This document shows positions 5,266-56,939 of a stretch of 63,946 nucleotides of DNA, piece by piece. The DNA comes from a virus (lineage: Duplodnaviria; Caudoviricetes). Under the pieces are notes generated by a model. It was not told the origin of the DNA. It worked only from the letters and a program-made list of their open reading frames with translations, and did not search any database. The DNA lies in IMG/VR virus record IMGVR_UViG_3300036851_000534, positions 1 through 63,946 of that record; one strand, given 5' to 3'. The translations under genes were made by a program, and so were the position numbers. The first letter of the stretch is position 1. Each line of letters starts with the position of its first letter.

Positions 5266-5324
5266 ATGAGCGAAGCGCGCGCCGTTCCCATTACCAGCAT
5301 CGAGTTCGATGCGGCGAACGCGAA
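5266..5324 (+). pseudogene. Orphaned original 5' end of the ParB-MTase gene
   Basis: MSEARAVPITSIEFDAANA aligns with MGKPTEITALPIDRIFFDAKNA at 6142. Confidence 0.7.
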
Positions 5325-5363
5325 AGAGAAGGAACAAGCGGAGCGGGTGTTGAACTTAAGTGC

Positions 5364-6179
5364 ATGGAAACAACCTTCATCTATGCACTTGCGGACCCTC
5401 GGGATGGAGCGTTGCGCTATGTCGGGAAGTCAAACGCCCCTAAGGTCCGCTATCGCCGCCATGTGACTGAGGTCAACACGACGCATCGTGTCTGCTGGAT
5501 TAAGGGCCTGCGGCTCCTGGGATTGCGTCCGACCCTGATTATCCTTCAGGAAGTGCCTCGTGAGACCTGGGAAGAGTTTGAACGTGCTTGGATACAGCGG
5601 CTCAAGACAGAGGGGTGCGCCCTCACCAACCTGACAGATGGCGGTGGGCATTGTGAGCTTGGCCCAGAAGCGCGGGCGAAAATGCGGGCCGCGAAGGTCG
5701 GGAAGCCGCCTCACAATAAGGGCAAGCAGACTTCTATAGAGGCGCGGCAGAAACAGAGCGAGTCTGCAAAGCGGCGTTGGGAGCGGATGACTGCGGAGGA
5801 GAAGCAGCAGGGGGTGGCTCATTTGCGAGGGATCCCCCAGAAGGGCCGGCCTGGGCATCCACAGACGCCCGCGACTCGAGCGAAGATTTCGGCAGCAGGG
5901 ATTGGCCGGCGGCACTCTGAGGAAACCCTCAGGAAGCTGTCGGCCGCATCGAGAGGCCGTCCGCACAAGGCGACCGGGCCGTGTTCTCCCGAGCGCAGGG
6001 AAAAGATTAGCAGGACACTGCGTGCATTGTCTGACGAGCAGGTCACCGAAATACGCTTGTTGCTCGCGGAAGGTCGGTTGACGGGCAAAGAGATTGCCGC
6101 GCGAGTTGGGGTGGCGCCGCAGAAAATCTCAACGATCAAGAATGGGAAAACCTACCGAGATTACCGCGCTCCCCATTGA
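5364..6179 (+). CDS. GIY-YIG homing endonuclease with NUMOD3-like repeats
   Basis: FIYAL...YVGKS...RYRRH...E...NLTDGG; repeated (T/S)xE(T/A)RxK(I/L/M)S units; C-terminal HTH. Confidence 0.85.
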   Translation: METTFIYALADPRDGALRYVGKSNAPKVRYRRHVTEVNTTHRVCWIKGLRLLGLRPTLIILQEVPRETWEEFERAWIQRLKTEGCALTNLTDGGGHCELGPEARAKMRAAKVGKPPHNKGKQTSIEARQKQSESAKRRWERMTAEEKQQGVAHLRGIPQKGRPGHPQTPATRAKISAAGIGRRHSEETLRKLSAASRGRPHKATGPCSPERREKISRTLRALSDEQVTEIRLLLAEGRLTGKEIAARVGVAPQKISTIKNGKTYRDYRAPH

Positions 6180-7476
6180 CCGCATCTTTTTCGATGCGAA
6201 AAATGCCAACGTCGGCACTGAGCGGGGCCGGCAGGTCCTCGCCCATTCCCTGGCGACCTATGGCGCCGGCCGGTCGATCCTGGTAGACCGTCAGGATCGG
6301 GTGATCGCCGGGAACAAAAGCCTGGCAGAGGCGGTCGCCGCCGGCATCGCTACGGTGCGCGTGGTGGAGACGGACGGCTCCGAGCTGGTAGCGGTGCGGC
6401 GCACCGACCTGGACCTCGACGAACCAAAGGCCCGCTTGTTAGCGTTTGCGGATAATCGCAGCTCGGAACTTGATCTCGCTTGGAATGTGGAGCAGATCGC
6501 GGCCGACCTCGATGCCGGCCTCGACCTCTCGGCGCTCTGGACCGGGGATGAGCTAGAGGAACTGCTGCGGGGTCTTCAGGAGCCGGGCGGTGGCCTCGTG
6601 GAGGGCGTCGATCCCGACGTCATCCCAGAGAGCGTGCCCTCCCGCTGCCAGCCGGGCGACCTCTGGCAACTGGGCCGGCACCGGCTGCTCTGTGGCGATA
6701 GCACGAAGGCGGAGGACGTGGCGCGGCTGATGGAAGGCGAGGAGGCGGATCTCTGTTTCACCTCGCCGCCCTACGATCAGCAGCGGCAATATACCGGCGG
6801 GATCGGCGACTGGCTGACGCTCATGCAGGGCGTCTTCGGCAACCTGCCGATGGTGGAGAAGGGGCAGGTGCTCGTCAACCTGGGGCTCGTTCACCGCGAC
6901 GGGGAATGGCGGCCCTACTGGGACCCGTGGATCGCCTGGATGCGGGAACAGGGCTGGCGCGCTTTCGGCTGGTATGTCTGGGATCAGGGGCCGGGACTCT
7001 GTGGTGATTGGAACGGCCGGCTGGCACCCGCGCACGAGTTCATTTTTCACTTCAACCAGATCGCAGAGAAAGCGCGTAAGTCGAAGGCAACTGCCTCGCC
7101 GGGCTGCTATCAGCACGGCCCCGGCTTTAAGCGGCGGGACGGCTCTGCGGCAGCGAAGAAGACCGGACACGGCCAGCCGGTGCAACCTAAGAAGATCCCT
7201 GATAGCGTGATTCGGGTCATGCGCCAGAAGGTCGGCGGCCTTCCAACCCAACATCCCGCCATCTTCCCTGTCGCCCTCGTTGCGGAGATCATGCAAGCCT
7301 TCTCCGACCCAGGCGATCTCTGCTTCGAGCCCTTTGCCGGTAGCGGGACCGCCTTGATCGCCGGGCATGAGCATGGCCGGCGTGTCTGTGCGCTGGAGCA
7401 GGAAGCAACTTACTGTGATATCGCGATTGCCCGCTTCGAGCAGGCCACCGGCCTCTCGGCCAGGCGGCTCGACTGA
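6142..7476 (+). CDS. ParB-like N-domain fused to an N4/N6 DNA methyltransferase
   Basis: ILVD...IAGN...ADNR; HRLLCGDS; FTSPPY; HPAIFP; FEPFAGSGT. Confidence 0.88.
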   Translation: MGKPTEITALPIDRIFFDAKNANVGTERGRQVLAHSLATYGAGRSILVDRQDRVIAGNKSLAEAVAAGIATVRVVETDGSELVAVRRTDLDLDEPKARLLAFADNRSSELDLAWNVEQIAADLDAGLDLSALWTGDELEELLRGLQEPGGGLVEGVDPDVIPESVPSRCQPGDLWQLGRHRLLCGDSTKAEDVARLMEGEEADLCFTSPPYDQQRQYTGGIGDWLTLMQGVFGNLPMVEKGQVLVNLGLVHRDGEWRPYWDPWIAWMREQGWRAFGWYVWDQGPGLCGDWNGRLAPAHEFIFHFNQIAEKARKSKATASPGCYQHGPGFKRRDGSAAAKKTGHGQPVQPKKIPDSVIRVMRQKVGGLPTQHPAIFPVALVAEIMQAFSDPGDLCFEPFAGSGTALIAGHEHGRRVCALEQEATYCDIAIARFEQATGLSARRLD

Positions 7477-7877
7477 TGCTTCAGCGTATCTATATCGCCG
7501 GCCCCTACACGGCCCCGACCCCGAAGGGCGTGCAGGTCAACCTTGACGCCGCCTTCCGCGCCGCCATTTGCCTTATCCGGCTCGGCCACGTCCCGTACTG
7601 CCCGCACCTCACCCATTACCTGGATGCGGCGGCCCTCGCCCTGGGCGTCAATATCGAATACGAGGAGTGGCTCGGCCAGGACCGCGAATGGCTCGCTCTC
7701 TGTGACGCGCTGCTCTACCTGGCGCCCTCACCCGGCGCCGACCGGGAACGGGACTGGGCGGCGGCGCTCGGGCTCGTGATCTACCACCGGCTCGACGAGA
7801 TCCCTCCCGCCGAGCAGAAGCGGCTCCCTGCTCCTTTGTTGAAAGAGCAGCAGCAGCAGTGGGACGTAGGGGCATAG
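7476..7877 (+). CDS. DUF4406/nucleoside-deoxyribosyltransferase-like protein
   Basis: RIYIAGPYT...GHVPYCPH...LCDALL...SPGADRE. Confidence 0.7.
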   Translation: MLQRIYIAGPYTAPTPKGVQVNLDAAFRAAICLIRLGHVPYCPHLTHYLDAAALALGVNIEYEEWLGQDREWLALCDALLYLAPSPGADRERDWAAALGLVIYHRLDEIPPAEQKRLPAPLLKEQQQQWDVGA

Positions 7878-7896
7878 ACCCCGATAGGATTGACAA

Positions 7897-41787: not shown

Positions 41788-41837
41788 AATGCTTTATTGT
41801 ATCGCGGTTCATAGGTGTCTACGCATAGGATAAGCCC

Positions 41838-43934: not shown

Positions 43935-43945
43935 AGATCGATCCG

Positions 43946-44194: not shown

Positions 44195-44213
44195 CGCTCG
44201 TCCTCTCCCTCCG

Positions 44214-44405: not shown

Positions 44406-44641
44406 CGCACTTCCTCCTCAACCGCTTCATTACTCTCCCAGCACCAGGGAGGCGTATTCGGCTGCCCATGCTCAGGAGGCCGCTCGGGAATAGAGATCCA
44501 CCCATAGGACCCGCCCTCTGCCGCGGTAGTTTTGGCGAGGATCTGCTCTGCGACCCATTGAAGGTCCGTGAAGTCGCCGCAAACCTCGAAGGAGCCACAC
44601 AACGCGCGCTTCACCGTGCCATGCGCGAGAATGATTCGCAT
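44402..44641 (-). CDS. Hypothetical protein
   Basis: GGGAGG SD. Confidence 0.5.
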   Translation of the reverse strand: MRIILAHGTVKRALCGSFEVCGDFTDLQWVAEQILAKTTAAEGGSYGWISIPERPPEHGQPNTPPWCWESNEAVEEEVR

Positions 44642-44660
44642 CGCCTCCCTTTCTTTTGTC

Positions 44661-45008
44661 TCAATCCCAATCCAGGATCACGAGCTGCTCCGGCGGCAGG
44701 CGAAAGAGGAAAGCGAACACGGCAAACGTCCACTCCATGCACCCTTCCCAGGGCCGGGGGCGCTGCTGGATCTCCGCCGCGTGCGTCCAGGTAAGCGGAT
44801 CGCCATAGCTGTCCGTGTGCGTCGTCTCCAAGCCGGTCTCCTCGGTATATCGCTGTAGTCCTCCCGGCAGCCCCCAGACCGTCCAGGCCTCGACGAACTC
44901 CCGGGCGCCGTCGTCGAGCGTCAGGTGGAGCCGATCGGCGGCGAAGACCGGCCGCCCGGCCGACAGTTCATTGCGGATCGGGAAATAGAGCGTCACCGAG
45001 ACTCCCAT
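44661..45008 (-). CDS. Hypothetical protein
   Basis: TGATG coupling. Confidence 0.5.
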   Translation of the reverse strand: MGVSVTLYFPIRNELSAGRPVFAADRLHLTLDDGAREFVEAWTVWGLPGGLQRYTEETGLETTHTDSYGDPLTWTHAAEIQQRPRPWEGCMEWTFAVFAFLFRLPPEQLVILDWD

Positions 45009-45286
45009 CACTCCTCCTCCGTCAGCCACGCCGGCACCCCGATGCCTGCCGCGCGCAGGCTCGCCAGGATCTCCTCCCGCGTCTCCGGGTCGGTCCACTC
45101 CCGCAGCAGGTAGCGAGAGATTGCCTGGGCCTCATCCCGACCCCGCAGCAGGTAGCGAGAAGTCGCCCGGGCCTTATCCCGCTGCGCCTGGATTCGGCGC
45201 CGGCAATCGCCCAACGCATGCCGCAGATGCATGTCGCAGTGAGCTTCATAGTTCTCCCCACACTCGGGACAGATCCATTTACTCAC
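45008..45286 (-). CDS. Hypothetical protein with a 14-aa internal duplication
   Basis: RDKARATSRYLLRG / RDEAQAISRYLLRE. Confidence 0.5.
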   Translation of the reverse strand: MSKWICPECGENYEAHCDMHLRHALGDCRRRIQAQRDKARATSRYLLRGRDEAQAISRYLLREWTDPETREEILASLRAAGIGVPAWLTEEE

Positions 45287-45347
45287 GCCTTCCCCCAGTC
45301 CCGGCAGCAGGTCCGGTGATAATACACCCAGCCGGCCTCATTGCGCC
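45283..45347 (-). pseudogene. Orphaned original 3' end of gene 45687-45941
   Basis: RNEAGWVYYHRTCCRDWGKA*, GTGA-coupled to the next gene. Confidence 0.75.
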
Positions 45348-45373
45348 TGAGGAGGATCGCCGCCGCGGCGCAT

Positions 45374-45682
45374 TGAACCATTACCGGGAGATCACGGTTA
45401 TTAAGGCACTCCCTCCGCGCACCTTGAAGACTGAGCGTCGGGAGTTGCGCCAGGGAAAACGGCTGGCGCATAAAACGTTCACCGAATCCGAGTGTGCTCA
45501 CGCTGCGGGTCCTTGTGGCCCGTAGGGGCGACCGCCTTGAGCGGGTCCCGGCTTGCCGGGATCGTAAGCCGTCCAGACAGCTCGCCGGGGTTCCCCCTGG
45601 AAAGGGAACCGCCTTCCGGTAGGGCTAAATGCTCACCAGCTTTAGTGGTGGGATGCTTACTCCGCCCCGTCCGTATCCGCTC
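45374..45682 (-). ncRNA. Structured omegaRNA/HEARO-like RNA with a 22-nt 5' guide-like segment
   Basis: Starts GTAAGC-ATCCCACCA-CTAAAG-CTGGTGAG; closing GCTTAC; at least five further hairpins; the 5' flank copies the insertion site. Confidence 0.55.
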
Positions 45683-45686
45683 CCAC

Positions 45687-45941
45687 CTAACCCTTCCCAT
45701 CCCGACAACATGTCCGGTGATAATATAGCCATCCTTGATCGTTGCGCCCCGTCCGCATTCCCTCCTTTCCCAGGATCGGCGTGCCGCAGCCGACGCAGGT
45801 CGGGGCGACCAACTCCGCCATGCACAACTCCAGGTCGGCCAGTTCCTCGGTGAAGGTCCGCGCGTCCAGACCATCTCGCTCGACAACGGCCACGAACTGC
45901 CGGGCCGCCTCGACGACGCTGTTCAGCCGCTCGCGATTCAT
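45687..45941 (-). CDS. Hypothetical Cys/His protein with a recoded C-terminus
   Basis: CVGC...RNDQGWLYYHRTCCRDGKG. Confidence 0.6.
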   Translation of the reverse strand: MNRERLNSVVEAARQFVAVVERDGLDARTFTEELADLELCMAELVAPTCVGCGTPILGKEGMRTGRNDQGWLYYHRTCCRDGKG

Positions 45942-46171
45942 CCTTCCTCTTTCCTCTCGTTCCTCTCCCGGATCATCCCCACCATCTGCTGATTGAGCAG
46001 CGCCACCTGCTCCCCCAGGTTCCGCACCTGCTGCCGCAGATCTTTGATCTCCCGTTCCTGCGCCTCGTTCTCTGCGTGCGCCTGAAGCAGCCGGTCGCGG
46101 AACGCCTGCGTGGCTCGGGCCACCTCGCAGTGGTGGCAGGTGCAGCCAGGATGGGGGAAGGTCAGGGTCAT
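45938..46171 (-). CDS. Hypothetical coiled-coil protein
   Basis: ATGA coupling at both ends. Confidence 0.5.
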   Translation of the reverse strand: MTLTFPHPGCTCHHCEVARATQAFRDRLLQAHAENEAQEREIKDLRQQVRNLGEQVALLNQQMVGMIRERNERKEEG

Positions 46172-46563
46172 GGATCTTCTCCCGCCGCAGTTACCACGAT
46201 GACCACTTCCTCCCGCTGCTTCCAGCGGTCTCCGGTCTCTTGCTGCACCGGCGCCCACTCGACATAGCGGGCGCTGTCGTCCGGCGTGATCCCGAATCCC
46301 TGGCGGCGCCGGCAGAACAGCGCGTTGATGATCGGCTCCGCCGCGGCCAGCAAGTGGTCCGGATCGATGGTGCGGCCGCGGCGCACCAGGAGCGTCACGC
46401 GCGCACGTCCTTCGACCTGCGGCGCGCCGGCGGCGAAGTAGGCGAGCTGGGCCGCGGCCTGCGCGGTCTTCTCTCGCCGCCGGCGTTCCTGGAGATGGAG
46501 CCGCTGATTGGACGTGAGCCGACCCAGATCATAGCAGACGCGCAGGATGAGCTTGTCGCTCAT
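46168..46563 (-). CDS. RusA-like Holliday junction resolvase (atypical motif)
   Basis: SNQRLH...RVTL...IDPDH...INAL...GITPDDS. Confidence 0.6.
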   Translation of the reverse strand: MSDKLILRVCYDLGRLTSNQRLHLQERRRREKTAQAAAQLAYFAAGAPQVEGRARVTLLVRRGRTIDPDHLLAAAEPIINALFCRRRQGFGITPDDSARYVEWAPVQQETGDRWKQREEVVIVVTAAGEDP

Positions 46564-47723
46564 GGTCGAGCCTCCCGGCGGATCTTGCCGAGGATGTTGG
46601 CGACCGTTTTCAGCGCGATTCCGAGCTGCGCCGCGATCTGTGCCTGTGAATGGCCCTCCCTCTGAAGCTGGAGGATGGCCGCGGCGCGCTCTTGCCGCGA
46701 CGGCCGGGGCTCCCGGAGCGGAAGGCGTCCCTCGAGCTGCGCGCGCCGGATGAGGCGGCCGACCTGCTGGTGGGAAAGCGACAGCGCCGCGGCGATCTCC
46801 GCATAGGAGCGTCCTTCGGCATGGAGTCTCAGGACGGGGTCCGGATCCGCGGCGCGCGCCGCGCCTGCGATCGGCGGCAGCAGGCCGAGGCGCCGGGCCT
46901 CCCAGATCCAGGTATAGACAGTGGGCCGAGGGGCGGCAAGCTGCGCGGCGATCTCGGTCGGCGAGAGACCGGCGGCCATGAGGGCGCTCACCTCCCGGTG
47001 GCGGACGGTCTCTCGCCGGGGACGGCCGGCATAATCGGGCGTCAACGGAAGTGCCGGCGGCTCCGGAGTCACCCCAAGGATTTGGCGGAGCGCGAGGACT
47101 GCCTCCTGGTAGCGCTGGAAAGCGCCGGATTCAGAAATCCCGCTCCGCCGGCCGAGGGCGAGAAACGTTTCCCCCTCCATCCGGCCAGAGAGAACGTCTC
47201 GCTGCTCCTGGGTGAGCCTTCGCAGCGCCGACCGGAGCGCGAGCTGCGTTACGACCTGCTCTTCGGACCAGCCATCGGCGAGTGCCAGGTGCTCAGCGCG
47301 GTCAAAGACGTGGCTTACGCCGTCCTCATTCTCGATCAGCAGTTCCTCGAGGGAGAGGATCCGCTCGCGCAGGGGAGGCGGCTCCTCCGGCGGCTCGGGC
47401 CGCTGCCCCGCTGCATAGGCCGCCTGCTGCTCCTCATAGTCGCGCCAGCGTTGCCGCGCCGTCCGTCCCGCCGGATCCCAGTCTCGCAGCGCGTCTTTGA
47501 GGGCCCACCGGATTTTATTGATGATCCAGGTCCGCCGCGCCCACCCCAGTTCGGGTCGATAGCTGCGAGTCGCCCTCAGGGCGGCCTGGAGGGCAATCGC
47601 TTTCCAGTCGTCCTCATCCGCCTCCGGCAGCACTGGCAGGGCCAGCCGCGCCACCGTCTGCGCCGCCAGGGCGAAGAGGTGACTGATCTCTGCCGTTTCA
47701 GGGCAGGGAAGGCAGGGTTTCAT
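46560..47723 (-). CDS. Sigma-70-family factor with three extra C-terminal HTHs
   Basis: Region-2-like ALRATRSYRPELG...TW...IRWALKDALRDWD; ILSLEE; region 4; then LSPTEIA, RSYAEIA and HSQAQIA HTHs. Confidence 0.7.
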   Translation of the reverse strand: MKPCLPCPETAEISHLFALAAQTVARLALPVLPEADEDDWKAIALQAALRATRSYRPELGWARRTWIINKIRWALKDALRDWDPAGRTARQRWRDYEEQQAAYAAGQRPEPPEEPPPLRERILSLEELLIENEDGVSHVFDRAEHLALADGWSEEQVVTQLALRSALRRLTQEQRDVLSGRMEGETFLALGRRSGISESGAFQRYQEAVLALRQILGVTPEPPALPLTPDYAGRPRRETVRHREVSALMAAGLSPTEIAAQLAAPRPTVYTWIWEARRLGLLPPIAGAARAADPDPVLRLHAEGRSYAEIAAALSLSHQQVGRLIRRAQLEGRLPLREPRPSRQERAAAILQLQREGHSQAQIAAQLGIALKTVANILGKIRREARP

Positions 47724-48058
47724 GGTCGCTTCGCTCTGGCTCTCAGCTCGGGGCTCTCGGCTCTTGGCGGGACGGGGAAGGGGAGGGACAGGTTCCCGTC
47801 CTCACGCGAAGCCGAGAGCCGAGAGCCGAGAGCCGCCCTTCTCCCCGGCCCGATGAGCGCCCGCGCTTCCAGGCACCATACCCGGTACGGATAGCCTTTT
47901 CGCTCGCCCCAGGGATAGTAAGCGCGGAGTTCCCGGCGGGTAATCCCGGGCTGTCCCTGCTTGAGCGTCCAGATCAGCTCCGCCGCCCGCTCGCGCCAGG
48001 TCTGGGGGCGCTGGTCCGCGAGGGATTTGATGAGGGCGGAGCGGTTGCCGCGTTTCAT
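47720..48058 (-). CDS. Hypothetical protein
   Basis: YPWGER..YPYRVW motif. Confidence 0.55.
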   Translation of the reverse strand: MKRGNRSALIKSLADQRPQTWRERAAELIWTLKQGQPGITRRELRAYYPWGERKGYPYRVWCLEARALIGPGRRAALGSRLSASREDGNLSLPFPVPPRAESPELRARAKRP

Positions 48059-48066
48059 GGCGGTCC

Positions 48067-48468
48067 TTACCTCTCCAGAACGCCCATCCTCGCGCCGGAA
48101 ACCGCGCTGAGGCGTTCTTGGTCGTTTTCGCCGCTCGGTGCGTCAGAATCGCATCGTGGCGCGTTGACGCGCAATCTAGGCTGCCAGCGTCCGACGGTCA
48201 CATGACACCGCCCGACGCGCGCCCCGATCTCCCGTTGGGTCAGTCCCGCGTCGGTAAGGGCCGCGATGGCGGCGAGCAGGGCGGCGTCGGTGCGGAGATG
48301 CCGGCCCTTCTCCCGGGGGATCCCGGCCCGGTCGAGATGCTTCCTAACCGTGGCCGGATGCATCGTCAGCCGCCGGCCGATCTCCCGGCAGGAGAGCCGC
48401 TCCTCGACGTAGAGTTTGGCGCAGCGGCGCGCCTCGCGGGCCTCGCGTGGGGTGAGCGGCAGGTTCAT
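48067..48468 (-). CDS. Tandem-HTH DNA-binding protein
   Basis: LSCREIGRRL...TVRKHL; LTQREIGARVG...TVGRW. Confidence 0.65.
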   Translation of the reverse strand: MNLPLTPREAREARRCAKLYVEERLSCREIGRRLTMHPATVRKHLDRAGIPREKGRHLRTDAALLAAIAALTDAGLTQREIGARVGRCHVTVGRWQPRLRVNAPRCDSDAPSGENDQERLSAVSGARMGVLER

Positions 48469-49058
48469 CTTCCTGCTCTCCCGACCTCGATCAGCACCTC
48501 CTCGGGCAGTAGCGTTCCAGGGCGCGGACGGCGTCCCGGCAGCGCATAAGGGATCTCTGGCTGCTGGCGCCATTGCTCCCACGCTCGGATTACCGCTCCC
48601 GATCCCGGAAACAGATCATGGAACTCGTCGTTAGCTCTTAATCCAAGCACGCCGAACAACCAATAACAGAAGGCGTCGGGCTTGGCCCCGATGACCGGGC
48701 GCCGCAGCGTAATGTTCGCAGCGCACCAATCCCGTACCGTCAACTGGCGGCGAGTCCGCCGCCGGCCGCCGCACACGAGGAGCGGCTCCCATGCATAGGC
48801 CACCCCGACTCCAGGTTTGAAGGAACAGAATGGCTTCACCCATGCCATGACACGCGTTACGTCGGGAACAAGCGCCAATAGGATTCGGAGACTTGGCGAA
48901 TGACATGAGAGCGCCCAACCATCCGGAAACTCTTCCACGAGCCGGGCGATGAGTGCCGCGTGATCTATCTCTTGCTTCTCTGGATAACGGTGACCACAGC
49001 CGAGGTAAGGAGGATCGGCATAGGCAAATCTGCCCGGCCGGTCTTTGAGGTCCCTCAT
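48465..49058 (-). CDS. Compact DNA adenine methyltransferase
   Basis: AYADPPY...AWVKP...AWEP...DLFPGSG. Confidence 0.75.
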   Translation of the reverse strand: MRDLKDRPGRFAYADPPYLGCGHRYPEKQEIDHAALIARLVEEFPDGWALSCHSPSLRILLALVPDVTRVMAWVKPFCSFKPGVGVAYAWEPLLVCGGRRRTRRQLTVRDWCAANITLRRPVIGAKPDAFCYWLFGVLGLRANDEFHDLFPGSGAVIRAWEQWRQQPEIPYALPGRRPRPGTLLPEEVLIEVGRAGR

Positions 49059-49390
49059 CCCTCTCCCCTCCCGGCCCCTACGGGAACGTCCCACGTAAGC
49101 GCCTGGCTCGCGTCCTCCGGGTGCGTGGCCCGCCAGTGCAGACCGAATAGGCTCACGCCCTCGGGGCGGAACGAAAGGTACGCGATGGCCTCGACGAACG
49201 AGGTCCACTCGGGCGCGGTCGTCACCTGATCGGCGGCGAAGAGGGTCAGCGCCGCTGCTTCTAGCCGCTCGCAGTGCAGCAGGCACCGCTCCTGCACGGC
49301 CACCAGCGGCCACCGGGAGAACTCCCGGATACGGAGCGGCACGGCGAGCGAGAGCGCCTCTTGCAAGAGCGGGAGGCTCAAGGCGTTCAT
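49055..49390 (-). CDS. Hypothetical protein
   Basis: AVPLRI...LSF.P.GV..FG.HW. Confidence 0.55.
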   Translation of the reverse strand: MNALSLPLLQEALSLAVPLRIREFSRWPLVAVQERCLLHCERLEAAALTLFAADQVTTAPEWTSFVEAIAYLSFRPEGVSLFGLHWRATHPEDASQALTWDVPVGAGRGEG

Positions 49391-49947
49391 GGGCGTCGAG
49401 CCTCCACGAGACGCGGCAGGCTATGAGGATAAGTGCCAAGATAGCGCAGTGCGGCGGCCGGCTCCGGAAAGTCGCCCAGATCGGTGCCGCAAGAGCGCAG
49501 GAACCACATATCCTCAACGACGTGCCAGTTCGGATAGGCGATGACGACGGGGATGCCCAGCCCTACGGCAAACCCGAGTTCCACCAGGGTGCCATAAGAG
49601 TCGGGCCGGTGAATCCAGGCGAACACAAGGTCGGAGCGGCGAATGGCGCTGAGACAAAGGGATCGCACGAGTTGCGGATCGGGGGCATCCCCACACATCT
49701 CCGTCGAGAGGCCATGCAGACCGCCTACTGTCGGCCTTCCGAGGTGATCCACCGCCGGCGTATGCGCGCAGCCGTGATCGCAGAAGGTGAAATAGGGGCC
49801 GGTGTAATCGAAGCCGCCCACGACGGCCTCGGAGAGGATCGGCCACGGCTCCCCTGGCTGATGCTCGGCGGTCTCCCAGTGGATGCCTTGGACCACACTA
49901 TGCCGCCAGCAGTTCTTCTCGATCTTGCCTGCCAGGTAGATTTTCAT
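49387..49947 (-). CDS. Nucleoside 2-deoxyribosyltransferase-like protein
   Basis: KIYLAG...AI..SD.VFAW...GTLVELGFA...G.PV. Confidence 0.75.
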   Translation of the reverse strand: MKIYLAGKIEKNCWRHSVVQGIHWETAEHQPGEPWPILSEAVVGGFDYTGPYFTFCDHGCAHTPAVDHLGRPTVGGLHGLSTEMCGDAPDPQLVRSLCLSAIRRSDLVFAWIHRPDSYGTLVELGFAVGLGIPVVIAYPNWHVVEDMWFLRSCGTDLGDFPEPAAALRYLGTYPHSLPRLVEARRP

Positions 49948-50408
49948 GCGCGTCCCGCCCCCTCCCGGGCCTTCTTCGTCGCCTTGATTAGCTCGCTGGC
50001 GGCGGCCATGTCCGTTGGGATTTCCGCTTCCGTGTAGCCCCAGGCGAGCAGCAGGTTACGTTGGTTCTGGCTCACCGGCTTGTCTTTCATCACCACAAGC
50101 GCGTGCTGCTCGCCTTTCTCCCATTTGCGCCGGCGTTTCTCCTCATCCGACAGGGCAAGATAGGCGAACTTTCCCTCGGCATAAGCCAGTGCCTCTTCCT
50201 CAAACTCTCCGATAAGGGCAATGGTCAACTCGCCGCGCGAACGGGTATAAGGCTGGCGCAGCCACGCCACCGCCTGATCCAGCACGAGAGTGACGACCTC
50301 GCGGGCGTCTCTGGCCTGATCCCTCCGGATCGCGTCGAGGAAGGCGTTGGAGATCGTGCTTCGGACGGGAACCTCGAAGTGCTGGATGAATGCCTCGTCC
50401 TGTTTCAT
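49944..50408 (-). CDS. Hypothetical protein
   Basis: AGGAG SD; ATGA coupling. Confidence 0.55.
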   Translation of the reverse strand: MKQDEAFIQHFEVPVRSTISNAFLDAIRRDQARDAREVVTLVLDQAVAWLRQPYTRSRGELTIALIGEFEEEALAYAEGKFAYLALSDEEKRRRKWEKGEQHALVVMKDKPVSQNQRNLLLAWGYTEAEIPTDMAAASELIKATKKAREGAGRA

Positions 50409-50740
50409 GGCGCAACTCCTGCCTTTCGGATCCGGACCCGGAAGCACCAGTTCACCTCGCCGGCAGTACCGGGTGTGGGCTGATAGCCGGCGGCGAGCAT
50501 GGCGCCTTTGAACTGGCCGTTGGTGACATAGAAACCCACGGCCTCGAAGTCATGCTTCAGTCCGTAGCTAGTCCGAGAGTTCGCTCGCGAGGTCGGCGTG
50601 AACGTCCGGGCGATCCACTGCTGCAATTCCATCTGCTGCGCCGCCGTCAATTCGGCATAGTGCTCCGGCGCATTGAACCGCGCCTCGTCGGCTTCCCTCT
50701 CCGGCTGTCGCTGCTTTCTGCTCGCTTTCGTCGCTTCCAT
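50405..50740 (-). CDS. Small conserved protein downstream of the primase
   Basis: TSYGLKH..E...YVTNG.F..AM..AGY. Confidence 0.6.
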   Translation of the reverse strand: MEATKASRKQRQPEREADEARFNAPEHYAELTAAQQMELQQWIARTFTPTSRANSRTSYGLKHDFEAVGFYVTNGQFKGAMLAAGYQPTPGTAGEVNWCFRVRIRKAGVAP

Positions 50741-50794
50741 GGGCCCTCCTATCCTCACAGGTAAAGAGCCTGACCGCTGCCGTCTTCTCAAAGC

Positions 50795-50978
50795 GTGACG
50801 GGTTTCAGGCACCGTGACGGGTTGTGACGGGTTTTCCTATATGTTTTCTGTACAGTTCCGTCTGTTTGCCGGAGCCGCAAACCCGTCACAACCCGTCACG
50901 GGTTTTTCATGCGCGTGCAATTGGAGAAACCCGTCACAACCCGTCACCAGGCATAAAACCCGTCACGAAACCCGTCAC
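50795..50978. repeat. Iteron cluster, putative replication origin
   Basis: Nine exact AACCCGTCAC copies (3 reverse, 6 forward). Confidence 0.8.
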
Positions 50979-53374
50979 GCTCCCGCAAGGCGAGGATCAT
51001 CCCTCGTGTCTTCATCCAAGAGGCCGATGCCGCTGCGAAGTCGGCCGAGGTTGCGGTCGCGCACTTCCACGAAGCCCCGCTCGGTGAGCGCCCTCCCGAA
51101 GGCGGTTTGTGTCGCTGCTTGTTCCCCACTCGCCTGACACCATGCCTGATAAGCCGCGTAGAGGGCGCCGCTCCTGGCTCGCAGAGTAGGCTGCTGAACG
51201 CAGCGATCGGCGAGAAACCCGCCGAGGATGTCCATCTCCTGGCGATAGCTCTGCGTTGCCTCCAGCACGGCCGCCGGCCGTGCCAGCCCGATCTGTTGCC
51301 ATTGCAGACAGCCACGAACGGCCCAGGCGAGGATACCGGGCAGCTCGGCGAGCAGTTTGGTGAGCAGTAGTGGATCCTTGAGCGGTTGGCCGGGCAGCGC
51401 CCGGTCGGGATCGTAGAACGTGGCCGTAAAAGGGACGGTATGGATGCGTCGCCAAATGCCCTCGTCCGTTCCCTTGATTACCGGCTTGTGATTCGCCATG
51501 ATCCACAGCTTGTATTCAGGCAGGAACTCGACGAAATCCCGATGCATCTTGCGCCCCTTAAGGCGAACATCGCCCGTCATGCGTTTGACCAACTCCTCGG
51601 CGAGGCGCTTGCCTTCACCGACCTCCGAGCTGATGACGACCCGGCGTCCGGTAAGATCAGCGATGGCCGTAGGATGCTGGTCATGCTTCTGCTCCAACAG
51701 CAAACCGGGCGCTGCGGTCGTGGCGTACTCGCCGAGAAGCCGTTGGACCACCTCCAGAAACGTGCCCTTACCGTTCGCCCCCAATCCGTAGAGGAAGAAG
51801 AGACACTGCTCGCGCACGTCGCCGGCCAGGCTGTAGCCAACCGCACGCTGAAGATAGGCCGCCAGTGCCTCGTCGCCCTGGGTGATCTCGGCGAGGAACT
51901 GCTCCCAGCGGGGGCAGGTCGCCGTTGCGTCATAGTTGATCGGGATCTTGCGGGTGATGAAATCCTCGCGGCGATGCTGGCGCAGGGTGCCGGAGGTCAA
52001 TTCGAGGGTGCCATTTTCGAGGTTGAGCAGGAACGGGTGCGCGTCGAACTGTTCTGGAAGCAGGCAGATGCCGGGTTCGCTTTGGGCCAGCTCGATCATC
52101 GCTGCGAGCCGCCCGGCGCTTTCCGACTTCAAGCCCCACAGAGCGAGGGCTTTGCGTTCATCCGCCGAGTCGGCCTCACCCGCTTCGCTATAGATCGCGG
52201 CGACGGTCGCCTTGGCCCGTCGCATGATCGCGCGCGTCCGATCCTCGCACCAATGAGTCCCGCGCCAGATCAACCAGCCGTGAGCAAGCGTCGAGCGCAG
52301 ATTCTCTCCGTGTCGAGCCACCAGGCGCCGGGCGTTGCCCAGGTCCGTGTTGTGGATCGGCGCCGGCAGATCGACAGGCGGATCGGTCGGGGTGGTTACC
52401 TGGGGAGGGGCCGGCGAGTTCGGCAGAGAGGTGGCCGTGCGGTTGAAGGTGAACGCGCCGCTGCTGCCGTTGGCGGAGGGCTCATAGACGACGCCCCCGA
52501 GCGAGAGGGCCTTGTCGAGCGTCAGATCACCATAGGTTCGCTCACCCCGGCGTTCGTCCCACTTCTCGCGCATCAGCCCCGACTGACGGAAGAGCCGATC
52601 CATGCGCGGGCGGTCGCCCCGCGTCCAGAAGTAAAGCTCGGCGCAGAGCGCCAGGTCGGCCCGGCTGTCGTCGCCGCCGTAGTCGCCGGTATCGCCGCGC
52701 CAGAGCCGGCCGAACTTGAGGCCGTTCGCGGCCCGGTGGGCGCGGTCGAGGAGTTCCTGATCCGAGAGATCGAGCGGAGCGGCGGGGGCTGCCGGGGAGG
52801 AACGGGGGAGCATGAGGGCGTCGGGGAAACATTCGGCCAGCAGCGTGTCCAACTCCGCCTGGCGGGCCGCGATGATGGCCGGCGAGCCGGGCCAGTGCCG
52901 GCCGGTCACCGTCAGATAGCGGGCGCGATCGTAGACCTCGATCGCCCCGCCGTCGGCGAAGCTCTTCTTCCGGCCGTTGCCTGGCAGCCGGCCCTGGATC
53001 CAGACGCGGAGACCCTCCCCCGAAGGCGTAATCTCCGTATAGCTGTTGAGGAGGGCGATGGCGCGTGCTGACCAGGGAACGAGCCCCCCAGAGGAGAGGA
53101 TGCAATGGTCGAGATCGATGCCGACGTACGGATCGTCCGGGCTGATGACGAAACCGGGGCCGTTGAACTGATCCAGTCGCGCCGTTACCGCCTCGAAGGT
53201 GCTCCAGGTGGAGGCGTCCGTCGTGGAAGCGAGCCGGCCGTCAGGCCGAAACGGCGGCTTCGTGGGCCGGTCCTCATCCGCGCGGGTCACCCATTTCCAG
53301 CAAACCCACTGCGGCCGACCAGCCAGCTCCGAGAGGACGGGCAGCGAGGATTGAGTCGGATCAAACGTGTTCAT
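50975..53374 (-). CDS. Primase-polymerase (NrS-1-like) / D5-type SF3 helicase
   Basis: QWVCW, GIDLDHC, YTEITPSG.G, IEVYD..RY.TVTG; MDRLFRQSGLMR.KWD; GLGANGKGT Walker A; GIWRRI. Confidence 0.9.
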   Translation of the reverse strand: MNTFDPTQSSLPVLSELAGRPQWVCWKWVTRADEDRPTKPPFRPDGRLASTTDASTWSTFEAVTARLDQFNGPGFVISPDDPYVGIDLDHCILSSGGLVPWSARAIALLNSYTEITPSGEGLRVWIQGRLPGNGRKKSFADGGAIEVYDRARYLTVTGRHWPGSPAIIAARQAELDTLLAECFPDALMLPRSSPAAPAAPLDLSDQELLDRAHRAANGLKFGRLWRGDTGDYGGDDSRADLALCAELYFWTRGDRPRMDRLFRQSGLMREKWDERRGERTYGDLTLDKALSLGGVVYEPSANGSSGAFTFNRTATSLPNSPAPPQVTTPTDPPVDLPAPIHNTDLGNARRLVARHGENLRSTLAHGWLIWRGTHWCEDRTRAIMRRAKATVAAIYSEAGEADSADERKALALWGLKSESAGRLAAMIELAQSEPGICLLPEQFDAHPFLLNLENGTLELTSGTLRQHRREDFITRKIPINYDATATCPRWEQFLAEITQGDEALAAYLQRAVGYSLAGDVREQCLFFLYGLGANGKGTFLEVVQRLLGEYATTAAPGLLLEQKHDQHPTAIADLTGRRVVISSEVGEGKRLAEELVKRMTGDVRLKGRKMHRDFVEFLPEYKLWIMANHKPVIKGTDEGIWRRIHTVPFTATFYDPDRALPGQPLKDPLLLTKLLAELPGILAWAVRGCLQWQQIGLARPAAVLEATQSYRQEMDILGGFLADRCVQQPTLRARSGALYAAYQAWCQASGEQAATQTAFGRALTERGFVEVRDRNLGRLRSGIGLLDEDTRDDPRLAGA

Positions 53375-53390
53375 CACGCTCCTCGCGCGG

Positions 53391-53684
53391 TCACTTCTCC
53401 GCCGACTGCGCCTGCCAGCCCTGCGCCGTGAGCTTCCAGCCGAGGAGCGGACTCCCCTCGAGCAGTCCCCAGTCATGGAGCCGCTCCAGGTGACCCAGCA
53501 CCTCCGGGATGCTAAAGCCGGTCGCGCGGGCATACCAGCCCAGGGGCAAAAAAACGACGGTACTCTCGGCGGAATGTTCCGCGATACAACGGAGGATTGT
53601 TCGCTCGCGGGGAGGAACAATCGGGTATCTGGTCCCTGCCAACGTGCAGGAACCAGGTTCGACGCGAGACGCGCCGGTATCCAT
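53391..53684 (-). CDS. Winged-helix protein
   Basis: AAGGAG SD; YARATGFS...V...L.RL...GLL. Confidence 0.55.
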   Translation of the reverse strand: MDTGASRVEPGSCTLAGTRYPIVPPRERTILRCIAEHSAESTVVFLPLGWYARATGFSIPEVLGHLERLHDWGLLEGSPLLGWKLTAQGWQAQSAEK

Positions 53685-53942
53685 GATCCACTCCTTGTTT
53701 CGTGGGTTGCTTGCGAACAGCGAATCGCGAGCCGGTGTTGACGCGAGATGCGCCCGTATGCAGGTGTCGCTCCTTGTGTCGTTTCGTGTTCGGATCAGCC
53801 CTACCAGTTCCAGCCGTCAAACTGGACGGGGTGGGTTTTGACCCTACGGGTCCCAGGCGTCAGACTGGACGGGTCAAACTGGTTCGGCTATAATGAGGGA
53901 GAGTGATGGATGGTTCTGACCTTGCCGGGTTGCGGAACCAAC

Positions 53943-54398
53943 CTAATGGCCCGGAGAGTCGCCAAGCTCTCCGGGCCACTTTCTTGTGCCGGCGCCGCGC
54001 GCCGCTTCCTCCAGTTCGCGAAATAATGCTGCCGCGAGCAATTCGTCCTCCGTTTCGCGGTCGCGCCGCACCGCATGGATTCGCCTCTTTACGAGTGCCG
54101 GCGCATACTCATCGCCGCCCTCTCCTGGTTCCACGCGCCCCCGGACCGGGCGCCGGCAAAACCATGCTTCTTGGCGCACGAGGATATCGAGCGCTGTCCG
54201 GGTACGGCCGCGGGAGAGGTGGCTGAGGTCCTGGATTTGGGCCAGGGAGGCGCGCCACCAGTGCCTCCCCGCCCCTACGGTTTTGCCATAGAGCACGCCG
54301 CCGACCGCGCGTACGTCCGGATTTGGATGCTGGGTGATGCGGAAACAGAGTTCAGACAGGTCGGCCGGGCCGCGTCGCTCTCTATGCTCATCCGCCAT
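53943..54398 (-). CDS. Winged-helix replication-initiator-like protein
   Basis: KTVG...SL.QI...S.LSR...AL..L; repeats immediately downstream. Confidence 0.5.
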   Translation of the reverse strand: MADEHRERRGPADLSELCFRITQHPNPDVRAVGGVLYGKTVGAGRHWWRASLAQIQDLSHLSRGRTRTALDILVRQEAWFCRRPVRGRVEPGEGGDEYAPALVKRRIHAVRRDRETEDELLAAALFRELEEAARGAGTRKWPGELGDSPGH

Positions 54399-54401
54399 CG
54401 C

Positions 54402-54740
54402 CTATCGCTCCTGAGAGCCTCGCGCCGGACCGGCCATGCCGGGCGGCGGCTCCCACAGGATGTGAAAAACGTCGGCGCTCGCCTCGGCGACCCAGTTGAC
54501 CTCAGCGAGTCGCATCGCCGCCAGTCGGGTCCGCGCGAGGTTCAGGCCGCACTTCTCTGCCAGTTCGCCAACCGCAACGGTAGTTCCTGGTATGCCCGTC
54601 CGATTTTCCTCCATGAGGAGCCCGAGGAGCACGCGGAGCCCCTCGTCGGTAATGACATCGAGCTGCTCGAGCAGCTCGCGGGGGATCGCCACATACTCTG
54701 CCGCCCCGCCCTCGCTGTCTGTCGGTTTGCTGCTTGCCAT
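54402..54740 (-). CDS. Winged-helix protein
   Basis: ELAEKCGL...T..A..RL....WV. Confidence 0.55.
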   Translation of the reverse strand: MASSKPTDSEGGAAEYVAIPRELLEQLDVITDEGLRVLLGLLMEENRTGIPGTTVAVGELAEKCGLNLARTRLAAMRLAEVNWVAEASADVFHILWEPPPGMAGPARGSQER

Positions 54741-54814
54741 GATGTCCTCTCGTCGTCGTGATTGCGCTTAGGGCGCTGTTACTGCGTCTCATGGCTGCTT
54801 TCTTTCCTCTGGTC

Positions 54815-54852
54815 AAAAAAGGAGGCGCCCCCGGACGGGGCCGGTCGCTTCC
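54815..54852 (-). terminator. Intrinsic terminator-like hairpin
   Basis: GGAAGCG...CGCCTCC-TTTTTT on the minus strand. Confidence 0.5.
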
Positions 54853-54956
54853 GACGCCGCTACTAGACTGCCGGCCGGTATTATGCTAAAATGGAAACGT
54901 TACGCGATGTCGCTCTACGTTCGTCGCCCGGCAGACGCCCTGCCGGGCGGCCTTAT

Positions 54957-55532
54957 TCAGGCGGCCGCTTCCTCCCGTCCCTTGACGGCCTCGATGCGGG
55001 CGCGCAGCTCTCGGACCCTCTCCTCGTTCCAGGCGCTCGCCGGCTCCATCAACGCGAGCAGGGGTTTCAGCACCTCCGGATCGAAGTGCCGCCGCTTGAT
55101 CCACGGTCCGGTTTCGAGGCGCGCTTCGAGCCAGTCCGAGAGATCCCCAAGGCTAAAATGCCACAAAATCGCTCCGTCTCTCGGCACGGCCAGGGCGCGG
55201 AGCCGGCCGTCAAGGATCTCCTGGCGCAGATGCTGCTTGCTCTTCCCGACGAGCCGGCGGGCGACGACCATCGGGACGATGACATGGCGCATCGCCTTCG
55301 GCAGCCCCGTCGTGGGACTGCGTTCCGCCTGCCACCGAGCCAGGGCCGCGCGGTCGATCAGAATCGCCGGCTTGCCGACTTTGCCGGATTGTCGAAACCG
55401 ATACGGCACGCCCGCCGCCTGGAGCGTGCGCCAGAGATAACGCCGCTCAAGCCCCGTCTCTGCGACCGCCTCCGGCAACGTCAGCCACTCCGCCTGCGGC
55501 TCCGGAACCTGCCCTTGTATCTCCATCGGCAT
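54957..55532 (-). CDS. MerR/excisionase-like (HTH_17) DNA-binding protein
   Basis: WLTLPEAVAETGL; second unit ARRLVGKS...I.DGRL.A; AAAGGAGG SD. Confidence 0.6.
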   Translation of the reverse strand: MPMEIQGQVPEPQAEWLTLPEAVAETGLERRYLWRTLQAAGVPYRFRQSGKVGKPAILIDRAALARWQAERSPTTGLPKAMRHVIVPMVVARRLVGKSKQHLRQEILDGRLRALAVPRDGAILWHFSLGDLSDWLEARLETGPWIKRRHFDPEVLKPLLALMEPASAWNEERVRELRARIEAVKGREEAAA

Positions 55533-55549
55533 CCGCCTCCTTTGTTTAT

Positions 55550-55579
55550 ATTATACTTCACAAGGAACTCAAACGGCAA
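55550..55579 (-). promoter_or_regulatory. Early promoter TTGCCG-N18-TATAAT
   Basis: Member of the four-copy family. Confidence 0.75.
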
Positions 55580-55628
55580 GATGATGTTCCGGGGAGGAGT
55601 TTGCGCCTGCTGTGGCGTAGAGTGACCC

Positions 55629-56162
55629 ATGCCACGCTTGATACCGGTGGACTGGACCCCCGAGTGTCGTATGTCGCGTCTGGTAATCCACTGGACGGCC
55701 GGAGCCGGGGCTCCTTCGGCAGAGGACCTCGAGAGTTACCATATTCTCATCGATCGGGTGGGCCTCCCCCATCGCGGCGACCACAGCATCCGCGACAACC
55801 TCAACACCATTGACGACGACTACGCCGCCCACACGCGCGCCCTGAATACCGGCAGCATTGGCCTGGCGCTTTGCGGAATGGCCGGCGCAAACCGGGCGCC
55901 GTTTGCTCCCGGGAGGTTCCCGCTGACCCGCCCGCAGTGGAATAACGCGCTCTTGGCCGCGGCGGATCTCTGCGAGCGGTATGGGATCGCGCCGGAGCGG
56001 AACACGCTCCTGATGCATTGCGAGGTGCCGCAGGCGCTTGGGGTGGCGCAGCGGGGAAAGTGGGACGTAACCGTTCGTACGTGGGCTGGGCCGCCGGAGT
56101 ATGCCTCGCTCACTCCAGGGGAAGAGTTAAGGGTTCGGGTGAAGAAACTTCTGGAGGGGTAG
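55629..56162 (+). CDS. N-acetylmuramoyl-L-alanine amidase (endolysin)
   Basis: VIHWTAG, YHILI, AAHT..LN..SIG...C, Q, H.EV...KWD. Confidence 0.85.
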   Translation: MPRLIPVDWTPECRMSRLVIHWTAGAGAPSAEDLESYHILIDRVGLPHRGDHSIRDNLNTIDDDYAAHTRALNTGSIGLALCGMAGANRAPFAPGRFPLTRPQWNNALLAAADLCERYGIAPERNTLLMHCEVPQALGVAQRGKWDVTVRTWAGPPEYASLTPGEELRVRVKKLLEG

Positions 56163-56811
56163 TCTTTTGCGGACGACTACGAATGGGGGCTGTGAGGGCT
56201 TTCTCGATATCCCAACCGGCCTTTAGCCGGCCGTGAAGTCGCTCCGGTTCGAGTCCGAGTTCGTGTGCCCATTGGGAGACGGTCTGCCGCCGGCCGTCCC
56301 ACTCGATCCAGACGTTTCGGCGCGTGTTGTTGGTGTTCTCGCGTTGAGTGGTCCATCGGCAGTTACCGGGGGCGTAGGGGCCGGCGCTGTCGATCCGATC
56401 CAGTACGGCCTTCGGGAAGGGTTTGGGTCCCATGGCGCGCAGGAAGTTGGCGAAGTCATGCCACTCTTCGGCTACGGTGATCCCTTGGCCGCCGTAGAAG
56501 CGATAGCGATCATGGTTTGGATTGTAGCAACGGCGCATCATACGCGCCCACGTCTGGTACTCTACGCTGGGGGTATGCTGGCGAGTGTGGCCGTGGGTAA
56601 CGCTTCTCTCACAGCCGCAACTCTTGCTTTCTCCCTTGAGGAGGGAGAAGAGGAAGACTGCATGCTCCGTTCCGCAGGAGCAGCGACAAGGGATGAACCA
56701 GTGAAGCCGCTTTCCGCGCAACTCTCGAAAGGGCGTGCCGATGATTTCCCAAAGTCCGACGTGCGCCCCGATCTCGGGGGCTTTCTCATGCATTCGCAGG
56801 CGTCTTCCCAT
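56110..56811 (-). CDS. HNH-type homing endonuclease
   Basis: CRCSCG..SCGC; W..M..RC; YGGQGI.V..EW; LDRID..G.Y.PGNCRWT. Confidence 0.85.
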   Translation of the reverse strand: MGRRLRMHEKAPEIGAHVGLWEIIGTPFRELRGKRLHWFIPCRCSCGTEHAVFLFSLLKGESKSCGCERSVTHGHTRQHTPSVEYQTWARMMRRCYNPNHDRYRFYGGQGITVAEEWHDFANFLRAMGPKPFPKAVLDRIDSAGPYAPGNCRWTTQRENTNNTRRNVWIEWDGRRQTVSQWAHELGLEPERLHGRLKAGWDIEKALTAPIRSRPQKTTPPEVSSPEPLTLPLE

Positions 56812-56888
56812 CGCACTATCCTCCAATGGTAAGTTCGACGTATCCCCCAAGACTTCCTGTGTTTTACCGAGGAAAGTACAACGCCGGG

Positions 56889-56939
56889 ACTCCCGGCGAG
56901 GATCTGCGCCAGCGGGTAGAGTTGTTGCTGGAGGGGTGA
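56889..56939 (+). pseudogene. Orphaned original 3' end of the endolysin
   Basis: TPGEDLRQRVELLLEG* versus the current TPGEELRVRVKKLLEG*. Confidence 0.8.

Follow-up and report, generated by a model that had tools for sequence, protein, structure and literature searches.

Nuclease genes within coding regions are classically borne by introns or inteins. The Seg and Mob genes of T4-like phages are free-standing GIY-YIG and HNH nuclease genes of sporadic distribution, whose spread is ascribed to double-strand-break repair with co-conversion of flanking markers; they lie in the gaps between genes and are not known to leave behind a duplicated, orphaned gene end. In Aeh1, insertion of the HNH gene mobE into nrdA ('genes in pieces') splits the gene into two polypeptides and leaves function intact. 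A different layout is described here in a phage genome, the complete IMG/VR record IMGVR_UViG_3300036851_000534 (63,946 bp, direct terminal repeats, GC content ~65%), which was analysed at full length and is called the window below. Its large terminase is ~41% identical to the terminases of Roseobacter and Rhizobium phages, a kinship that suggests phages of Alphaproteobacteria. At four loci (L1 to L4) an insert is bordered on one side by a diverged working terminus of the gene concerned and on the other by the orphaned native terminus. An earlier sequence-only reading of the window had claimed this single layout at four loci, and all four peptide duplications were found where it had placed them.

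Anatomy of this kind is already known from fungal mitochondria. The available part of one report describes mORF 'gene hybrids', first in Allomyces macrogynus atp6, then in Glomus atp6, atp9, cox2 and nad3, Rhizopus atp9 and Mortierella cox2 (PMC3630166). As set out there, a GIY-YIG or LAGLIDADG open reading frame (ORF) lies near the 3' end of a gene, with an inserted C-terminus and a displaced C-star terminus; the copies differ, which is taken as a sign of horizontal origin, and mobilisation of the element by its endonuclease is stated to have been shown biochemically (PMC3630166). C-terminal duplications beside degenerate endonuclease ORFs are reported in the available part of a second paper (PMC6279837). 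In ICP1-like phages, recombined tracts have homing endonuclease genes at their borders, close to essential genes; a term search of that paper, available in part, found no description of duplicated or orphaned target termini (PMC10448857). No phage description of a terminus-replacing layout was found in open-access texts, supplements excluded.

As far as the mORFs are described in the available text, the window resembles them in that a diverged inserted terminus continues the frame of the gene body, the native terminus is displaced and no splicing is needed. The phage version differs in its setting, in its antisense HNH genes and in an N-terminal replacement by a GIY-YIG gene at L1; that gene is on the same strand as its target but lies upstream of the working gene and is unfused, and no in-phase fusion was found anywhere here. 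At 8-31 codons the orphans are also short, and they preserve the translational coupling of the gene that follows. As free-standing GIY-YIG and HNH genes found in some related genomes and not in others, the nucleases recall the 'intronless homing' of Seg and Mob, but here the insertion point lies inside an ancestral reading frame. A splicing-free HNH insertion within a coding region is shared with mobE of Aeh1, whereas here a replacement terminus keeps the gene whole and what is displaced is a short orphan.

Duplicated gene ends across inserts

Each working terminus was compared, ungapped, with ~127,800 six-frame positions of the window. In 4/4 loci the best non-self match was the proposed orphan, on the same strand as the working terminus and directly across the insert. 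The orphan scored 91 at L3 (next best 27), 57 at L4 (26), 28 at L2 (20) and 35 at L1 (31).

The target at L4 is an Amidase_2 endolysin gene (55629-56162, plus strand; Pfam Amidase_2, E = 1.4e-11), whose 177 amino acids are within the common range of close homologues. Its working replacement end comprises ~56076-56162. A predicted HNH-family nuclease gene lies antisense to it (56110-56811, minus strand, ATG at 56811; phrog_374, E = 1.2e-53), and the 3' tail of this gene overlaps the working endolysin end by 53 nucleotides. On the far side is an orphan of ~29 codons (56853-56939, plus strand) with a different endolysin tail type (LPVFYRGKYNAGTPGEDLRQRVELLLEG, then stop); GGAG and the start codon (ATG) of gene 56954-57184 come next. 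The duplicated peptides (56100-56162 and 56877-56939) conform to TPGE[ED]LR.RV..LLEG and stop, and the 27 closest aligned endolysin homologues end TPGEELRARV..LL. Further upstream the two tails are of different types, 'L-x-F-[DY]-R-G' in the orphan and 'R-[ST]-W' in the working copy, both of which occur among close homologues. The orphan fits the 'FDRG' tail type of homologues P0003, P0022 and P0026. The window endolysin body is nearest to P0003 (78% over 137 columns), the tail of which is of the orphan type and not of the working type; a tree of the first 143 columns also groups the window with P0003, with weak support (Shimodaira-Hasegawa-like approximate likelihood ratio test 81). Tail type changes 7 times on this tree, against a shuffled mean of 9.4, with 35/500 shuffles as low; the starred branches force just 1 change, so the tree does not demonstrate tail swapping.

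L2 affects an 85-amino-acid gene (19663-19920, plus strand) with a working replacement end at 19894-19920 (ALKRGNVI, then stop). Among the homologues listed, 33/37 are also 85 amino acids long, and the family ends KR[AGS]G..[IL] and stop. The payload is a predicted HNH-family nuclease gene by PHROG match (phrog_374, E = 8e-70; phrog_3377, E = 2.3e-52), antisense to the target (19913-20560, minus strand), and its stop overlaps the working stop by 8 nucleotides. The orphan (20580-20606, plus strand) consists of the native last 8 codons and stop (ALKRGGVI). Working and orphan codons differ at 8/8 sense positions, the working end using CTT, AAA, AGA and ATT, a habit shared with the related locus L087 described below. 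It had been claimed that this orphan keeps the coupling or Shine-Dalgarno sequence for the next gene, and this was confirmed. The orphan contains the Shine-Dalgarno sequence and the overlapping GTG start of gene 20606-21361 (Laminin_G_3; junction TAGTG), matching the exact native stop/start overlap and Shine-Dalgarno region of relatives: in L085, L086 and L087 the stop of the gene-19663 homologue overlaps or abuts the Laminin_G_3 gene start. In the window the native junction survives only at the orphan.

The right edge of the L2 insert is AT-rich and contains promoter-like hexamers on both strands, as consensus matches only. On the plus strand, TTGATG-18-TATTAT (20541-20570) points into the orphan and the next gene; on the minus strand, TGTGCTATAAT (20561-20580) immediately precedes the ATG of the nuclease gene. 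Scans for promoters and terminators gave nothing beyond consensus matches.

At L1 the duplicated end is N-terminal. The orphan (5266-5361, plus strand) is the native 5' end of a ParB-methyltransferase gene, ATG plus 31 codons, and its reading frame runs out of frame into the start of the payload, a predicted homing endonuclease gene with GIY-YIG, NUMOD3 and helix-turn-helix domains (5364-6179, plus strand; Pfam and PHROG). NUMOD3 was matched at E = 1.9e-15, GIY-YIG at E = 2.4e-4 (21.8 bits, just below the Pfam cut-off of 22.6) and phrog_314 'homing endonuclease' at E = 9.7e-13. The working ParB-like/N6_N4 DNA methyltransferase gene (6142-7476, plus strand; Pfam N6_N4_Mtase, E = 3.7e-19; phrog_498, E = 9.2e-63) begins with a replacement 5' end (6142-6249) that shares 38 nucleotides with the end of the GIY-YIG gene. 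The duplicated peptides are encoded at 5281-5361 and 6166-6249. A PHROG scan of the orphan and the working N-terminus alone gave zero matches because these peptides are too short.

L3 lies on the minus strand, in an 84-amino-acid gene with a CxxC...HxxCC pattern (45687-45941, called gene 45941) whose working end (45746-45687) has AT-rich codons. The GC content at third codon positions (GC3) of this gene drops from 0.88 to 0.35 after codon 67 (permutation p ~0.0005), and this change point coincides exactly with the start of the duplication. The orphan (45283-45345, minus strand) is the native end RNEAGWVYYHRTCCRDWGKA with its stop, has a GC3 of 0.81, and overlaps with its TGA the GTG of the next gene (45286-45008). 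The duplicated peptides (45746-45687 and 45345-45283) share GW[LV]YYHRTCCRD. A full HMMER search with gene 45941 found one homologue, P0160 (60% identical), and one further match to a spurious repeat protein; a word-index search returned the gene itself alone.

The L3 payload (45346-45686, minus strand, ~300-340 nucleotides) contains no nuclease gene. The payloads had been given as GIY-YIG, HNH, structured RNA and HNH; those at L1, L2 and L4 stood, and the RNA at L3 was rejected as unsupported. Its minimum free energy has a z of -1.0, 17/100 shuffles fold as well, and Rfam gave no match at E<=10 except a chance snoRNA row. Four long frames of the payload and ORF 45501-45286 matched no Pfam or PHROG family, and when the window and every fetched locus were searched with blastn and tblastn, the payload matched itself alone.

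An unbiased scan for nearby peptide repeats added a fifth locus, L5. Its target is a 314-amino-acid gene (33577-34521, plus strand) with a working end at 34449-34521; the orphan (34783-34855, plus strand) is a copy of the last 23 codons and stop, with an internal TAG. The two copies form direct repeat D2 (84% nucleotide identity over 69 nucleotides), in which similarity begins sharply at 34449/34783 and ends at the aligned stops. The payload is a 79-amino-acid ORF (34518-34757, plus strand) whose ATG overlaps the working stop as ATGA; it encodes no nuclease, has a genome-like GC3 of 0.79 and matched no PHROG family at E<0.01.

The sequences on either side of each insert were compared blind in all frames, with 211 random pseudo-inserts as the null (95th percentile 35, 99th percentile 37, maximum 48). 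Scores were 79 at L3, 54 at L5, 40 at L2, 40 at L4 and 35 at L1, the last reaching just the 95th null percentile. The window contains five nuclease genes, two of them found by tblastn with the window's own nucleases. These two served as internal controls and have no flanking duplication: a free-standing third HNH paralogue in a divergent intergenic region (41035-41787, minus strand) scored 28, and an ORF with a second GIY-YIG domain (31816-32985, plus strand, domain from ~32050) scored 30, both null-like. Among the nuclease genes, 2/5 exceeded the 99th null percentile and a third lay at the 95th; the binomial probability of at least 2/5 at p = 0.01 is 1e-3, and of at least 3/5 at p = 0.05 is 1.2e-3.

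Three wider statements of the sequence-only reading were narrowed by these data. A 'genome-wide strategy' is not a rule here: duplication is absent at 2/5 nuclease genes and a nuclease is absent at 2/5 duplications. The copies are not purely synonymously diverged, since amino acids differ too, at 5/18 of the last residues at L4 and heavily at L1. The working copy had been called AT-richer at the three C-terminal loci; this holds at L3, and the difference is not significant at L2 and L4. GC3 is 0.61-0.69 in the nuclease genes vs 0.76-0.86 in core genes. The best GC3 splits fall near the duplication boundary at L2 (19897), L4 (56067) and L1 (6205), none of them significant (p 0.34-0.57).

The third HNH paralogue contains its C-terminal helix-turn-helix module twice (QGWPIEKALTEP and RGWPVERILTNP) and overlaps the start of the next gene on its own strand. 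Two other repeats were seen. At 37531-38373 are four tandem small paralogues (79, 63, 70 and 69 amino acids), each with an ATGA stop/start overlap; the first three have the common C-terminus LLAWLK.QFPE.. and a 70-nucleotide 3' block (89% and 69% identity, spacing 188 and 209 nucleotides). At 35298-35387 are three tandem 30-nucleotide copies (100%, 90% and 67% identity to the reference copy), which overlap the ATG of a 737-amino-acid tail-like gene (35364) and fall within the 5' end of the minus-strand ORF 34845-35414.

Relatives without inserts and recurrence in other phages

Empty alleles were sought by aligning relatives, as the sequence-only reading had proposed, and were recovered for L1, L2 and L4. 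G001, a 21.7-kb IMG/VR contig containing locus L002, was reached via the endolysin homologue alignment; its synteny with the window begins at window position 54.4 kb, passes through the origin and extends to 13.2 kb. G001 has no GIY-YIG gene; its methyltransferase gene, with a single N-terminus, begins ~150 nucleotides after the upstream gene. The working methyltransferase of the window is 61% identical to that of G001, and the L1 orphan ATG and its upstream leader align at the nucleotide level with the G001 methyltransferase start; L1, weak by score alone, is rescued by this alignment. The G001 endolysin has a single C-terminus and no HNH gene. A metagenome scan gave three loci for L2, of which L085 and L086 have no HNH gene at the junction. 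The nucleases are thus sporadic, being absent from otherwise syntenic relatives at L1 and L4 (G001) and at L2 (L085 and L086), and each of these nuclease-free relatives has a single terminus. None shows the duplication, whose presence in endonuclease-free relatives the sequence-only reading had named as a refutation. The relatives compared are just 60-79% identical to the window. IMG/VR scans with the endolysin and gene 20606 as single proteins, and with the gene-19663 alignment, found no relatives.

In G001 the homologue of the plus-strand gene 56954-57184 (L002, 2406-2179) is inverted and convergent with the endolysin gene. Among 80 endolysin-family loci, one (L051) has a truncated-looking HNH-family homologue upstream of the endolysin (2535-2846, minus strand). 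Ralstonia phage YO164_3 (L088) and Acidithiobacillus phage AcaML1 (L089) have two tandem ParB-like DNA methyltransferase genes, compared with a single one in the window and in G001. An apparent insertion splitting the YO164_3 methyltransferase into 2 pieces was rejected, being really two tandem ParB-methyltransferase paralogues.

The third L2 relative, L087, has a 43%-identical antisense HNH gene one junction upstream of the L2 site, with a working ASIIFE and stop at the nuclease 3' end and an orphan ASIIWE and stop at the 5' end, just before the gene-19663 homologue. The sequence-only reading had also suggested a database scan for duplications beside nucleases. IMG/VR was scanned with a four-protein HNH alignment; 80 loci were fetched, 75 with usable flanks, and the layout recurred clearly in 3/75, in addition to L087. 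In L117 an amidase endolysin has 31 duplicated residues, in L101 a large terminase has 10 residues and stop duplicated, and in L118 a Zn-finger protein has the same layout. In a stop-anchored test L117 scored 33 and L101 scored 32 vs a null maximum of 21 (600 mismatched pairs). L130, L121, L123 and L093 (scores 38-42) were Arg/Pro/Gly-rich off-frame matches and were left uncounted, as was L139, which has a second nuclease motif.

An endonuclease ORF flanked by in-frame inserted and displaced native termini was thus found at L1, L2, L4, L087, L117, L101 and L118. Polarity is constant in 7/7 of these nuclease cases: relative to the nuclease gene, the orphan lies 5' and the working terminus 3'. 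The HNH genes are antisense to the target in 6/6 HNH cases; in mORFs, by contrast, the available descriptions place the endonuclease ORF on the same strand, often in phase.

The three HNH paralogues of the window match phrog_374/3377 'HNH endonuclease' (E values include 8e-70, 2.4e-64 and 1.2e-53) and are 41-43% identical to each other, 43% between L2 and L4. Homologues occur in 1,240 phage records, and many have the RefSeq product name 'HNH endonuclease'. The family alignment (A6, 48 proteins) has an invariant Arg in R-I-D...N...N and a Cys-rich N-terminal beta domain; an AlphaFold2 model of the L2 nuclease from 48 sequences had a predicted local distance difference test score (pLDDT) of 93.4. 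The HNH assignment is less secure than that of the GIY-YIG genes, which carry NUMOD3, GIY-YIG (just under cut-off), helix-turn-helix and phrog_314 matches.

Origin of the duplicated ends

The duplications are probably scars of nuclease-driven, one-sided gene conversion that made hybrid genes. The sequences themselves show the anatomy, relatives that lack both insert and duplication, and recurrence in other phages. Cleavage, cut position, repair route and continued mobility are parts of it that we infer as follows. A donor phage would have carried a free-standing GIY-YIG or HNH-family homing endonuclease gene just outside the end of a gene. The nuclease would cut the nuclease-free allele of a co-infecting relative, from a few to ~30 codons from the gene end. 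The broken end with the gene body would invade the donor and copy first the donor terminus and then the nuclease gene; the other broken end, having no homologous partner beyond the nuclease, would be joined non-homologously and kept whole. The product would be gene body, donor terminus (working), nuclease gene, recipient terminus (orphan) and next gene. In these packed operons the orphan would be retained because of the ribosome-binding site and overlapping start of the next gene that it carries; at L1 it carries the native leader and start, which could feed translation of the nuclease. Divergence of the copies would remove the cleavage site from the working copy and would keep the insert from being lost through recombination of the direct repeats. 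The finished unit, with homology on both sides, could home without an intron or intein.

One-sided repair would explain why the foreign tract and the orphan span the same stretch at L3, why polarity is constant, why the orphans are native in context, and why inserts are tolerated at overlapping stop/start junctions, where simple insertion destroys one gene. L3 and L5 may be decayed or nuclease-independent versions of the same anatomy.

Several results weigh against nuclease-driven conversion. L3 and L5, 2/5 of the duplications, carry no nuclease, so that a nuclease is dispensable for the anatomy. The HNH label derives from PHROG families and from product names in RefSeq: the family has no Pfam, NCBIfam or PDB sequence match, its invariant Arg occupies what we take to be the first-His position of the HNH_3 motif, the model core (residues 77-169) best fits the PacI HNH with a Z of only 6.2 (root-mean-square deviation 2.9, 79 aligned), and the top Foldseek row is I-HmuI at E = 0.78. 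Composition marks incoming DNA significantly only at L3. The layout is rare elsewhere, with 3/75 IMG/VR HNH loci, 0/15 GIY-YIG loci with clearly duplicated flanks (the top score, 37, matched the null maximum), and 0/8 cultured-phage HNH loci with a duplication (D3, Cimandef, phiAH14a, RSF1, PdC23, phi297, EFDG1 and Tiff81, chosen from 1,240 matching records). The tail of G001, the sole syntenic relative at L4, is closer to the working copy than to the orphan and the gene downstream of it is inverted; at L1, the N-terminal NAN.GTERGR motif of G001 is likewise closer to the working copies than to the orphan. Soil metagenome run X1 contains the window and may be its source sample. No empty alleles were seen in the X1 contigs, but contigs drop rare variants, so their lack there says little. 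No X1 contig gave a join across any of the cassettes, and the listed joints with 21-24-letter sides look like noise; the contigs also break at the 37531-38373 repeat.

The duplications could instead be generic scars of mosaicism, in which illegitimate recombination inserts modules, selection keeps both genes intact and nucleases are passengers. L3 and L5 have the same anatomy without a nuclease, duplication is absent at most HNH-family loci, and the L2 and L3 orphans hold the Shine-Dalgarno sequence and overlapping start of the next gene, so that a duplication would be needed for any viable insertion there. This explanation is nevertheless considered unlikely, given that duplication is enriched at the window's nuclease genes (3/5 vs a null of 1-5%) and that the same nuclease family with fixed polarity recurs in unrelated targets and phages. 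In-place partial tandem duplication of a gene end followed by divergence, with the insert arriving later or being the diverged remainder of the duplicate, finds a parallel in the tandem genes at 37531-38373, the first three of which have a near-identical 3' end, and in the L5 copies, 84% identical in nucleotides and both GC-rich; at L3, ORF 45501-45283 is uninterrupted and shares its frame with the orphan, although the payload part of this ORF has a low GC3 of 0.63. Insert-free relatives have one terminus, codons ending in A or T that are atypical of the genome are used in the working ends of L3, L2 and L087, and the two tails at L4 come from different family types. These codons and tail types point to a foreign origin, which makes in-place duplication improbable by a wide measure.

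Spliced elements, that is group I or II introns with endonucleases or inteins, with the orphans as true downstream exons, would agree with the weak, below cut-off match of the GIY-YIG proteins to TIGR01453 'group I intron endonuclease' (E = 1.4e-6 for the L1 gene). The window gave no Rfam family at gathering score over its 63,946 nucleotides, the HNH genes are on the opposite strand, and the working ORFs reach their stops ahead of the inserts, at a length that is already complete by comparison with homologues (endolysin, gene 19663). Joining to the orphan would delete or duplicate a terminus. Splicing is accordingly given almost no credence, and the earlier claim that no intron or intein is present stands. 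Chance similarity or an assembly artefact, such as strain variants concatenated by the assembler, is scarcely more credible. The record is a metagenome assembly, and L1 (35 vs 31) and L2 (8 codons) are short and weak by score. Yet the genome-wide best match lay on the same strand across the insert in 4/4 loci, relatives show the expected single-copy alleles, and the layout is found in other samples. A 22,648-nucleotide Logan contig of X1, independently assembled though possibly from the same reads, covers 37933-57400 with 0 differences; L3 and L4 are not assembly breaks because it spans both.

Possible consequences for phage gene ends

A broader proposal can be put forward only tentatively, as one that may well prove wrong. 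HNH-type nucleases of phrog_374/3377 and at least one GIY-YIG nuclease may travel as 'terminus-replacing cassettes', in which the mobile unit would be the nuclease gene plus 8-30 recoded codons of the target, last or first. This would be a third way, besides introns and inteins, into the interior of essential, translationally coupled genes, and one that does them no harm; the recoded end would make the gene immune to cleavage and stop the repeats from deleting the insert, and the orphan would keep the start signals of the next gene. Repeated rounds of cassette insertion would explain the mosaic C-terminal tails of endolysins and other phage proteins.

If nuclease-driven conversion is correct, phage homing endonucleases would invade coding regions and overlapping junctions without splicing, by carrying replacement ends, and a wider set of sites would be open to selfish nucleases. 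Short orphaned ends beside nucleases would become an annotation signature marking the cut site and the direction of conversion. The orphans predict the target of each nuclease, making the specificity of a very common phage 'HNH' family directly assayable. Phage biology would be linked to a phenomenon documented so far in fungal mitochondria. Conversion would also offer a tangible origin for the mosaic ends of endolysin, terminase and methyltransferase genes.

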